The notes beneath the pieces were generated by a model. The model did no database searches. It had not been told where the DNA came from and was given only the letters and a program-made list of their open reading frames with translations. Of a stretch of DNA of 36,997 bases, positions 15,136 to 16,412 are shown piece after piece. Positions within the stretch are counted from its first letter, which is position 1. The number at the start of each line of letters is the position of its first letter. This DNA is from Spirochaetota bacterium (GTDB lineage: Bacteria; Spirochaetota; Leptospiria; Leptospirales; Leptospiraceae). Location: contig JBCCIA010000013.1 in the NCBI GenBank assembly GCA_039028475.1, positions 1 to 36,997 of the forward strand. Reading direction: 5' to 3'. Made by a program: the position numbers and the translations under genes.

Positions 15136-15720
15136 TTAAGGAAATAGCTTTGTTTCAAAAATTATATGGTAAACTAATTCGATCAAGAACAAGAGCATGA
15201 GTAGGGGAATACGTATAGCCTTCCAAGCATACCTACCCAACATCTCCCATACTGTTTCTTTGCCGCATTTTGTTTCATCGTCAATAAACTCTTGTGGAAT
15301 TGGTTTGCTCAAATCCAAATCCAGACACTTACCAATACCACCTGGTTGTTTGTCCATGCCGTAAGTTAAGATACGTGGCTCTTCTGTAACAGTATCGTAT
15401 TTTAAGATATAGAGTTCTCCCCAAGGATCAGTTATTGCGTATTTACCACGAGCGAGAGGTTTATAGTTTTGGGGAATATCACCCACGGTTGGTTTTTCAT
15501 ATAAAGCTATCAACCCTTGCTCTTCAGAGGGGAACTGCCCATAAGCAATTGCATATTCCTTTAATAAAAAAAGAATCCTAAGTTGATTGTTCTTTAATTT
15601 TTTTTCTATAGGACAGTAACCCGTTGCATGGAGATTACCCACGATAAAGACTAAAAATGCTAGAGGATAGAGTAGTTTTCGTATAGAAATTATAGGTGCC
15701 AGTAATTGAGTATATTTCAT
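15136..15720 (-). CDS. GspG (type II secretion pseudopilin G) domain protein, non-canonical. No prepilin leader; C-terminal TM segment.
   Basis: FPSEEQGLIAL / ITDPWGELYIL / YGMDKQPGG align with the E. coli GspG core YPTTEQGLQAL / PQDPWGSDYQL / LGPDG. The N-terminus lacks the G-FTLIE class III signal. C-terminal hydrophobic stretch IRIPLLMLLFLIELVYHIIF. Confidence 0.55.
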   Translation of the reverse strand: MKYTQLLAPIISIRKLLYPLAFLVFIVGNLHATGYCPIEKKLKNNQLRILFLLKEYAIAYGQFPSEEQGLIALYEKPTVGDIPQNYKPLARGKYAITDPWGELYILKYDTVTEEPRILTYGMDKQPGGIGKCLDLDLSKPIPQEFIDDETKCGKETVWEMLGRYAWKAIRIPLLMLLFLIELVYHIIFETKLFP

Positions 15721-15770
15721 TAGTATCTATAGATTAGACTTCTTGAGCCATATCTGTTGTTATTTTCAGA

Positions 15771-16412
15771 TTATAATTTAGCCTTCTTTAGTAACTTTTC
15801 AAAGTCTTGCATCAATTGTAAAAATGATGGAAGTTTTGAACCATAGGGTATTATTTGTGTAAAGCCGTTATTGGATATTTCACTCAATACATAATATTTC
15901 TGGTCAACATTGCTCATTTCTAATTTAAATATACGGAATTTTAAGTTTCTTTTTAGAGGGCGCATGATTATTTTGTAATAATTGCTTAACGTCAATACCC
16001 CTTCCCCAGAAACTTCTGGAACAAAATATTCTGTGCCAATTACAGAATAGCTTCCGTATATCTTCACAAAACGAGCCCATGTACTGGTTCGAATCGGTCG
16101 ACCTTGTTTGATCCAATCCCTCTTAAAATCTTGATTCCATATTTCTAATATCTTTGCCCGCGTTTTTTGTGCGTCTTCTGCATTGTAGGTGCAATTGTAA
16201 ATAATATCCAATTGGATCAAACACTGAAAATTTTTGGGGTAGATATTTAGGCATTGAAAGATTTTTTGTTTTGCAGATTTATATTTTTCTTCGATTATCA
16301 AAGAATACGTTTCTTCAACAATTCTATTTATTTTTGGGTCAAAGATCTTATCCTTAGAGTAAAGGCTAAAAAAAGAAGAAAGAAGTAAGACTAAGATTAA
16401 AAGCTTTTGCAT
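15771..16412 (-). CDS. Secreted hypothetical protein (signal peptide), directly upstream of and co-oriented with the GspG-like gene.
   Basis: N-terminus MQKLLILVLLLSSFFSLYS. No recognisable family. Confidence 0.45.
   Translation of the reverse strand: MQKLLILVLLLSSFFSLYSKDKIFDPKINRIVEETYSLIIEEKYKSAKQKIFQCLNIYPKNFQCLIQLDIIYNCTYNAEDAQKTRAKILEIWNQDFKRDWIKQGRPIRTSTWARFVKIYGSYSVIGTEYFVPEVSGEGVLTLSNYYKIIMRPLKRNLKFRIFKLEMSNVDQKYYVLSEISNNGFTQIIPYGSKLPSFLQLMQDFEKLLKKAKL

Follow-up and report, generated by a model that had tools for sequence, protein, structure and literature searches.

A GspG-domain protein without a prepilin leader, predicted to be membrane-tethered, on a Spirochaetota contig

What can a GspG domain do in a protein that carries no prepilin signal? 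The question is raised by a 194-residue protein (P0001) encoded on the minus strand of the window analyzed here, a complete 36,997-bp contig (JBCCIA010000013.1) of a metagenome-assembled genome (MAG) labeled "Spirochaetota bacterium" at NCBI. The NCBI annotation names the protein "type II secretion system protein GspG." We found that its GspG domain is genuine and that the class III signal is absent. The reading that we favor, with modest confidence, is that of a non-polymerizing, membrane-tethered periplasmic GspG-domain paralog of the Leptospiraceae type, perhaps a type II secretion system (T2SS) accessory or modulator. The features of the gene, in positions of the window, are as follows.

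15136..15720, minus strand: coding sequence of the 194-residue leaderless GspG-domain protein P0001 (194 intact codons)
15610..15720, minus strand: N-terminal hydrophobic segment, residues 1 to 37 (MKYTQLLAPIISIRKLLYPLAFLVFIVGNLHATGYCP), from the Kyte-Doolittle profile, the model helix at 3 to 32, and the weight matrix
15301..15609, minus strand: helix alpha1C and globular GspG (T2SSG) domain, residues 38 to 140, from PF08334, model confidence above 90, and Foldseek
15319..15363, minus strand: counterpart of the Ca2+-binding loop in major pseudopilins, residues 120 to 134 (YGMDKQPGGIGKCLD), from the alignment to EpsG
15139..15285, minus strand: C-terminal extension, residues 146 to 194, Cys152 included, from alignments, the Kyte-Doolittle profile, and the model helix
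15151-15228, minus strand: predicted C-terminal transmembrane helix, about residues 165 to 190, with Glu179 and His183 inside, from the Kyte-Doolittle peak at 164 to 190 and the model helix at 157 to 189 (model confidence 78 to 87)

The GspG domain and fold are genuine. PF08334 (T2SSG) is the sole Pfam domain of the protein and spans residues 52 to 134 with an E value of 9.6e-13 and 48.6 bits, the gathering cutoff being 21 bits; Pfam gave no T2SSJ, T2SSK, or Pilin match that would point to a minor pseudopilin or a type IV pilin. Over the same region, TIGR01710 (gspG) scored 44.1 bits, under its equivalog cutoff of 88.85 bits. A phmmer search against PDB sequences matched only major pseudopilins, namely, GspG of enterohemorrhagic Escherichia coli (EHEC) (3g20), Vibrio EpsG (3gn9, 3fu1, and 4lw9), XcpT (2kep), and PulG (5wda). 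The AlphaFold2 model, built from a 34-sequence alignment, has a mean predicted local distance difference test (pLDDT) score of 85.3, with values above 90 across residues 41 to 140. Its helices span residues 3 to 32, 38 to 60 (alpha1C), and 157 to 189, with a break at 33 to 37 ("ATGYCP") and a low-confidence linker at about 141 to 156. When this model was compared with the PDB by Foldseek, the top matches were major-pseudopilin structures in 16 of 16 cases (EpsG, GspG, and PulG). The top 12 crystal chains gave E values of 3e-6 to 1e-4 and target TM-scores of 0.59 to 0.72, and the best matches were 3gn9, 4lw9, 3fu1, 3g20, and 1t92. For the EpsG, GspG, and PulG crystal structures the target TM-score was 0.63 to 0.72.

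Every column that is invariant in the 34 GspG-family sequences is kept by the 194-residue protein. At the sequence level, the two aspartates that serve as calcium ligands in EpsG have D123 and D134 as their aligned counterparts, and across the 34 family members D123 is nearly invariant and D134 invariant; the calcium ligands in PulG and OutG are D117 and D125 (PMC13081927). With the canonical GspGs (PulG, EpsG, XcpT, and OutG) the protein has in common the globular fold, alpha1C, the YPxxxQGL, DPWG, and GxDxxxGGxGxxxD motifs, and the Ca2+-aligned aspartates.

What the protein does not have is the class III signal. A Gly at -1 and a Glu at +5 are required for prepilin processing and pseudopilus assembly. 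Both are described as features of pseudopilins (PMC8134430). In the N-terminal segment of the 194-residue protein, G(-1), F(+1), and E(+5) are all missing, the first Glu of the whole protein is residue 39, and PF07963 (N_methyl) gave no match even at an E value of 1. With a class III weight matrix derived from the cleavage regions of the retrieved canonical GspGs, true Leptospiraceae GspGs (P0008 and P0010) reached about +35 bits, versus about -30 bits at the best position in the 194-residue protein. An alternative start cannot provide the leader, because an in-frame stop lies three codons 5' of the ATG and the sole other start-type codon within the first 40 is a GTG at codon 27. An upstream start giving a prepilin leader, the possibility that the first-pass annotation had set against its own view of a missing leader, is thus ruled out by the stop.

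We also considered whether the protein might be a working pseudopilin or pilin that uses a non-canonical site or peptidase and joins a T2SS or type IV pilus (T4P) filament encoded elsewhere in the genome. The "KLK" motif that opens alpha1C lies at residue 41, compared with mature position 35 to 37 in canonical relatives, so that residues 1 to 37 have about the length of a 4- to 6-residue leader plus alpha1N and the same location, which speaks for such a subunit; moreover, the eukaryotic mitochondrial GspG functions without a GspO homologue (PMC8134430). However, mitochondrial GspGs retain E5 and the cleavage-site features (PMC8134430), unlike the 194-residue protein, in which nowhere does a Gly, Ala, or Ser precede a hydrophobic run with Glu at +5 and no Glu at all comes before residue 39. 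R14 and K15 would fall inside the would-be filament-core helix, and the C-terminal transmembrane helix would prevent the protein from being drawn out into a filament. Already disfavored, a filament subunit seems to us very improbable. As for the origin of the segment, we infer from its length that the N-terminus is a class III signal that degenerated in place, rather than the result of a fusion with a foreign signal.

The Kyte-Doolittle mean exceeded 1.4 in windows starting at residues 6 to 20 and 164 to 176, with hydrophobic peaks at residues 6 to 35 and 164 to 190, and the model places helices at 3 to 32 and 157 to 189. The hydrophobic segments that the first-pass annotation had described at both ends are thus confirmed, together with its GspG core and its absent class III leader. 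At the N-terminus, R14-K15 break the hydrophobic stretch, so that L16 to L30 remain, followed by H-A. With L at -3 and A at -1, this arrangement looks no less like a cleavable signal peptide of the Sec type than like an anchor. The segment may stay uncleaved as a signal anchor, or it may be a Sec signal peptide that is possibly cut after LHA32.

The second option leads to a variant of the favored reading in which the architecture is inverted. Here signal peptidase I would cut the N-terminal Sec signal after L-H-A32 or, less likely, Cys36 would be lipidated, and the C-terminal helix would be the sole anchor. The variant differs in the end that is tethered and would explain why the C-terminal helix was gained. 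An n-region ending in R14-K15, an h-region of about 15 residues (L16-L30), L30 and A32 at positions that fit the -3/-1 rule, and the model's helix break at 33 to 37, ahead of alpha1C, are all consistent with it. A Cys just past the hydrophobic segment is also present in the leaderless proteins P0006, P0007, P0009, and P0017, and clear lipobox-type T2SSG proteins are known elsewhere (P0029, P0053, P0116, and P0119). However, the residues ahead of Cys36, A-T-G-Y, depart from the canonical lipobox [LVI][ASTVI][GAS]C, and the VPPC, EPGC, and YRC of the relatives do so too; spirochete lipoboxes are looser than the canonical one. In addition, the positive charges of the C-terminal helix are on the wrong side for a stop-transfer sequence, and the cytoplasmic tail would have only six residues. 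We regard the inverted architecture as possible but doubtful.

The 49-residue C-terminal extension with its transmembrane helix is what sets the 194-residue protein apart. Close relatives stop a few residues past the conserved "YPxxF" ("IPQEF," residues 141 to 145, in the 194-residue protein), which runs 49 residues beyond the end of its Leptospiraceae relatives, and the tail gave no significant match among 270 retrieved GspG-family proteins. The chance of 49 further codons staying open is about 0.025 at the local base composition, which is mild evidence that the extension is maintained. Two candidate origins of the C-terminal helix, whose "LFLIEL" recalls the pilin "FTLIEL," were tried and rejected: a relocated or circularly permuted class III segment, and the fused N-terminus of a downstream pseudopilin. 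The tail scored no better than shuffled tails with the class III matrix (p = 0.40), a longer matrix was negative too, and no GspG N-terminus matched significantly.

Among the relatives, P0006 has a shorter hydrophobic C-terminal tail, and the distant P0030, a 213-residue metagenomic T2SSG protein, is similar in layout. The P0030 tail resembles that of the 194-residue protein in having "GGIG-x-C ... C," a Trp, "RY," and then transmembrane helices. P0030 likewise combines a leaderless hydrophobic N-terminus, T2SSG, and a C-terminal transmembrane region, and it is solitary, with no gsp neighbors. Unlike the 194-residue protein, it has two C-terminal helices and groups with the outgroups in the tree described below, with 31 to 33% domain identity. 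The comparison of the two tails gave an E value of 6.7 in a small database, which is not significant. Homology of the extension with the P0030 or P0006 tail is thus not demonstrable at this level of similarity, and the resemblance to P0030 may be convergent. At the P0030 loci (L007-L012), an unannotated protein of about 305 residues always comes after it.

Compared with PulG, EpsG, XcpT, and OutG, the 194-residue protein therefore differs in lacking G(-1), F/M(+1), and E5, in scoring below the TIGR01710 cutoff, in lying outside a gsp operon, and in having the 49-residue extension and three predicted periplasmic cysteines.

The next question is where the protein belongs within the GspG family. 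A word-index search with the protein returned only itself, a metagenome scan returned nothing, and an exact-sequence look-up of the contig found no record. An exhaustive HMMER search of 1.84 billion representatives gave 364 matches, and neither there nor in the metagenome scan was a close ortholog found. The closest matches, with 45 to 47% identity over residues 38 to 146, are a mixture of leadered and leaderless proteins: P0008 (RKG/LTLVEL) and P0010 (REG/LTLIEI) have textbook leaders, and in P0006, P0007, P0009, and P0011 the N-terminus is hydrophobic and lacks both G(-1) and E5. P0008 lies within a complete gspC-D-E-F-G-H-I-J-K-L-M-N operon, with the Leptospira-specific fcpA close by. When one genome per species (185,579 species) was scanned for the subfamily motif, 22 loci were found, all 22 of them in Leptospiraceae and mostly representing the canonical gspG in its operon. 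In a neighbor-joining tree of the head domain (residues 41 to 140), the 194-residue protein stands alone on a long branch within the GspG clade of Leptospiraceae, roughly equidistant from its members. Its head-domain identity is 38 to 47.5% to clade members (43 to 47% to most of them) versus 30 to 38% to outgroup GspGs. According to the same tree, leaderless forms arose several times within this clade.

P0006, P0007, and the P0009/L030, P0011/L020b/L035b, and L019b/L021b lineages are grouped here, informally, as leaderless Leptospiraceae GspG paralogs. They share a GspG clade with the 194-residue protein, have lost the prepilin site with a hydrophobic N-terminal helix in its place, and in several cases are solitary in the genome. 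Unlike it, some of them lie in or beside gsp genes, and none has the full C-terminal transmembrane extension. The 194-residue protein is orthologous to none of them (38 to 47% identity): no orthology or synteny was found with P0009/L030, P0011/L020b/L035b, or L019b/L021b, and the flanking genes differ.

The genomic positions of these paralogs are varied. At L019 (9845-12597, Leptospiraceae UBA2033) and L021, a second, leaderless copy stands right after gspG and before gspH, inside the gsp operon. In the L019 copy, a 22-residue block after the transmembrane segment and the last 34 residues are identical to gspG, and these exact matches suggest gene conversion between the two. The L019 leaderless copy is followed by two small open reading frames (ORFs) resembling a putative toxin-antitoxin pair and then by a small lipoprotein gene. 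At L020 (1604-2586) and L035 (9854-10928), an extra canonical gspG is followed by a P0011-type leaderless copy, apart from other gsp genes, and at L017 (9250-10342) two tandem canonical gspG copies lie off the operon. No other gsp gene was present beside the extra gspG of L017, L020, or L035 in the retrieved flanks of up to 10 kb per side (L020 is a 7.9-kb contig). Solitary leaderless copies occur at L030, P0009, P0006, and L034, the last of which looks truncated.

Two of these lineages are conserved between genomes. P0009 and L030 share 64% identity, with a well-conserved head domain and a transmembrane region conserved only in hydrophobicity, and they have common neighbors: a pyridoxal phosphate (PLP) enzyme of Cys/Met metabolism upstream and a multiheme cytochrome and cytochrome b downstream. 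P0011 and L035b are 78% identical over their whole length. Because of this conservation, the P0009/L030 and P0011/L035b lineages are, as their sequences indicate, maintained rather than decaying.

This observation bears on the possibility that the 194-residue protein is the decaying remnant of a duplicated gspG, in which the class III signal degenerated and loss of the stop let the frame run on into AT-rich DNA that was once intergenic, giving the C-terminal helix. That the protein stands alone on a long branch, with no orthologs found, would suit such a history, as would a gene in a stretch whose GC content and third-position GC content (GC3) are below those of its housekeeping neighbors, an extension without a homologue beyond the point where relatives end about 49 residues sooner, and a sister paralog in another genome (L034) that looks truncated. 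The ATG of the gene also has no Shine-Dalgarno motif. About half of the contig genes lack one likewise, for which reason we dropped its absence as an argument against translation. On the other side, the ORF is intact over 194 codons, all invariant core residues and both Ca2+-aligned aspartates are kept, the fold is predicted with confidence, the open extension would arise by chance in only about 2.5% of cases, and comparable leaderless lineages are demonstrably conserved. Taken together, decay appears unlikely to us, and rather more so than an inverted architecture.

The contig itself holds no secretion machinery. Pfam scans of every larger ORF found no gsp, pil, or tad genes besides the gene of the 194-residue protein; tblastn of the contig with all eleven proteins of the complete Leptospiraceae gsp operon matched only that gene, and GspH, GspI, and GspJ as queries found nothing. 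The claim that no T2SS or T4P machinery gene lies nearby is thus correct, and it extends to the whole window. The first-pass annotation had called the protein an orphan that looks like a repurposed pseudopilin fold. The leaderless, anchored GspG fold withstood our analysis, but its uniqueness did not, since leaderless paralogs recur in Leptospiraceae, some of them in the gsp operon. An orphan location is not diagnostic of repurposing. The embedding in a gsp operon of relatives, which had been expected for an ordinary minor pseudopilin, was encountered only for the paralogs at L019 and L021, which are non-orthologous, equally leaderless, and not ordinary minor pseudopilins.

According to the above analysis, we suggest the following course of events for the favored reading, a membrane-tethered paralog. 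A diverged gspG copy of the Leptospiraceae type would have kept the calcium-loop head and lost G(-1), the N-methylated +1 residue, and Glu5. The N-terminal hydrophobic segment would direct the protein to Sec/YidC, and the GspG domain would then face the periplasm. The protein would not be processed, nor could the assembly ATPase and platform extract it, and because of this it would stay tethered to the inner membrane, whether through an N-terminal helix left uncleaved, through the C-terminal transmembrane helix specific to its lineage, or through the two together. The result would be a static periplasmic GspG module and not a filament subunit. Its most likely role, on which we can only speculate, would be to bind GspG partners (pseudopilus subunits, the assembly platform, or substrates) as a T2SS accessory or modulator; an interaction with the T2SS is proposed because leaderless paralogs adjoin gspG in related genomes. 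The main alternative is a role unrelated to the T2SS. Since leaderless paralogs recur in or near gsp genes in Leptospiraceae, the protein is no less likely to have kept a link to the T2SS than to have taken on an entirely new role.

Several points weigh against this explanation. The T2SS link would be drawn by analogy from the gene neighborhood of non-orthologous paralogs, and the genome is seen here through one 36,997-bp contig. The protein is a singleton, and hence purifying selection on the gene is not measurable. R14 and K15 leave about 15 to 17 hydrophobic residues, which would be closer to a cleavable signal peptide than to an anchor. R163, K166, and R169 precede the C-terminal helix and only E188 and K190 follow it, a poor fit to the positive-inside rule if the domain is periplasmic as predicted. 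Finally, what can be said of expression, topology, and partners is built from the sequence and a predicted model.

We also looked at T2SSG domains elsewhere. Among the 149 best non-self matches of the exhaustive search, a sample biased to leaderless proteins because the query itself is leaderless, the class III motif was present in 61. Another 33 had a different hydrophobic N-terminus and 6 a lipobox-like signal, and in 11 the N-terminal region was long and held transmembrane segments or other domains. Of the other 38, 12 were fragments, 11 had no locatable motif, and 15 had no hydrophobic N-terminus. In a profile search, N_methyl was absent in only 5 of the 120 best matches. At least 50 full-length proteins among the 149 carry T2SSG behind another N-terminus (a transmembrane segment or Sec signal, a lipobox, or other domains), and because of them we conclude that the GspG head domain is, on sequence evidence, repeatedly used without the pilin signal and outside filaments.

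Fusions confirmed by Pfam extend this picture: an FHA-transmembrane-F5/8C-SH3-T2SSG protein (P0012), T2SSG-TonB_C (P0035), and tandem T2SSG in the Sec-signal proteins P0014, P0016, and P0024. P0012 has 555 residues (L039 8001-9668; GCA_024233865.1, a Leptospiraceae-like MAG) and the order FHA, transmembrane segment, F5/8 type C (NADase_transloc), SH3_3, and T2SSG, the GspG head being the C-terminal periplasmic module of a signaling-type protein; it adjoins an ankyrin-FHA protein and a CLC channel, with no gsp genes nearby. Such multidomain and lipoprotein T2SSG proteins (P0012, P0035, P0014, P0016, P0024, and P0053) resemble the 194-residue protein in having a periplasmic GspG module, in lacking the class III signal, and in lying off gsp genes. 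They differ from it in their N-terminal anchors, their extra domains, and, mostly, their lineages. Our literature searches found no experimental study of them, and full-text searches found no dedicated study of leaderless GspG-like proteins or of Leptospira GspG paralogs.

The nearest published analogue is the mitochondrial GspG of the mitochondrial T2SS (miT2SS), a GspG homologue with an N-terminal targeting region that is not bacterial and with a C-terminal extension to which no function is assigned (PMC8134430). It differs in that it keeps the cleavage-site features and E5 and is thought to polymerize, and in that its C-terminal extension is about 100 residues long, conserved, and not a single transmembrane helix (PMC8134430).

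A broader proposal, which we put forward as tentative and on balance unlikely, is that leaderless GspG proteins make up an unrecognized functional class, in which the present protein, as a doubly anchored form, would be an extreme case. They would be static tethered copies that dock on the T2SS as a stop or anchor, a decoy, or a substrate partner, or else a general periplasmic module; independent losses of the signal would have recurred, both in Leptospiraceae and in other phyla, and in the present protein the anchor may even have shifted to the C-terminal end, so that the pilin topology would be inverted. In any case, the 194-residue protein is an unusual, doubly hydrophobic GspG paralog in a recurrent, unstudied class of leaderless T2SSG proteins and not a new system.

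These findings have some practical consequences. Automatic "type II secretion system protein GspG" labels on such proteins can inflate or mislead inference of T2SS content, because a protein like the one described here is very unlikely to be a filament subunit. The repeated loss of the class III signal together with a conserved calcium-loop head, with some copies right after gspG, suggests that the GspG head has a periplasmic function of its own. If that function is to regulate or anchor the pseudopilus, an unrecognized component would be added to the poorly studied leptospiral T2SS. Leaderless GspG copies are fairly common, and the present gene alone, a singleton in one MAG, is of limited significance; it is the general phenomenon that may deserve attention.

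The neighbors of the gene, again in positions of the window, are as follows.

15721..15770, no strand: spacer of 50 nt between the same-strand genes of the 213-residue and the GspG-like proteins, with no terminator-like hairpin
15771..16412, minus strand: coding sequence of a 213-residue predicted exported protein (P0002), upstream neighbor with a signal-like hydrophobic N-terminus
14089..15084, plus strand: gene of a 331-residue leucine-rich-repeat (LRR) protein, convergent neighbor with an N-terminal signal-like segment

The first-pass annotation had paired the GspG-like protein with the 213-residue protein as a two-gene module. The 50-nt gap on which the pairing was based is correct and holds no terminator-like site; a promoter and terminator scan of the locus gave counts not above those of shuffled sequences and no terminator, and we predict that the two genes are probably co-transcribed. 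In the 213-residue protein, a signal-like N-terminus is followed by a helical half, weakly similar to TPR (E value of 6e-4 to a designed TPR protein, from a profile of the protein and its homologues), and then by a beta-rich half. It belongs to no Pfam or NCBIfam family, and its single-sequence structure model, with a pLDDT of 54.5, was not good enough to search for similar folds. Among 5.8 billion clustered proteins its homologues number only three, with about 40% identity, and a metagenome scan with the family alignment gave nothing further. Downstream of these three homologues lies an unrelated convergent gene or a small ORF that is likewise unrelated, never a GspG-like gene, and tblastn found no homologue beside any GspG paralog in 41 loci. 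A conserved two-gene module was therefore rejected; the 213-residue protein is an upstream neighbor and not a dedicated or conserved partner.

The LRR, GspG-like, and 213-residue-protein genes (14089-16412) have GC contents of 0.32 to 0.37 and GC3 of 0.32 to 0.35, below the values of the flanking housekeeping genes (about 0.39 to 0.43 and 0.41 to 0.47, respectively), and because of this difference they look like accessory, lineage-specific DNA. The products of all three have a signal-like N-terminus.

Elsewhere on the contig, the genes recognized by Pfam include those for SecA, MltG, PriA, IspD, a DUF445 protein, AsmA-like proteins, the LRR protein, and a protein of the MVP/SPFH type; scanned over its full length, the contig gave no Rfam match and no tRNA. 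The MVP/SPFH-like protein, of 827 residues (11240-13723, plus strand), combines a Major Vault Protein (MVP) shoulder domain (E value of 8e-24) with a Vault_3 repeat and SPFH/Band 7; it is a bacterial MVP-like protein, and such proteins are unusual outside eukaryotes. Most of the 424-nt gap upstream of the gene of the 213-residue protein is occupied by a TTG-start ORF of 120 codons (16526-16888, minus strand), which shares 53 nt with the 3' end of the DUF445 gene. If real, it more likely begins at Met35, and its product would then be small, with two hydrophobic segments. Two tandem genes at 19339-22372 (minus strand; products of 486 and 507 residues) have weak AsmA/DUF748 similarity and sit downstream of mltG and the DUF445 gene, within a run of envelope-related genes.

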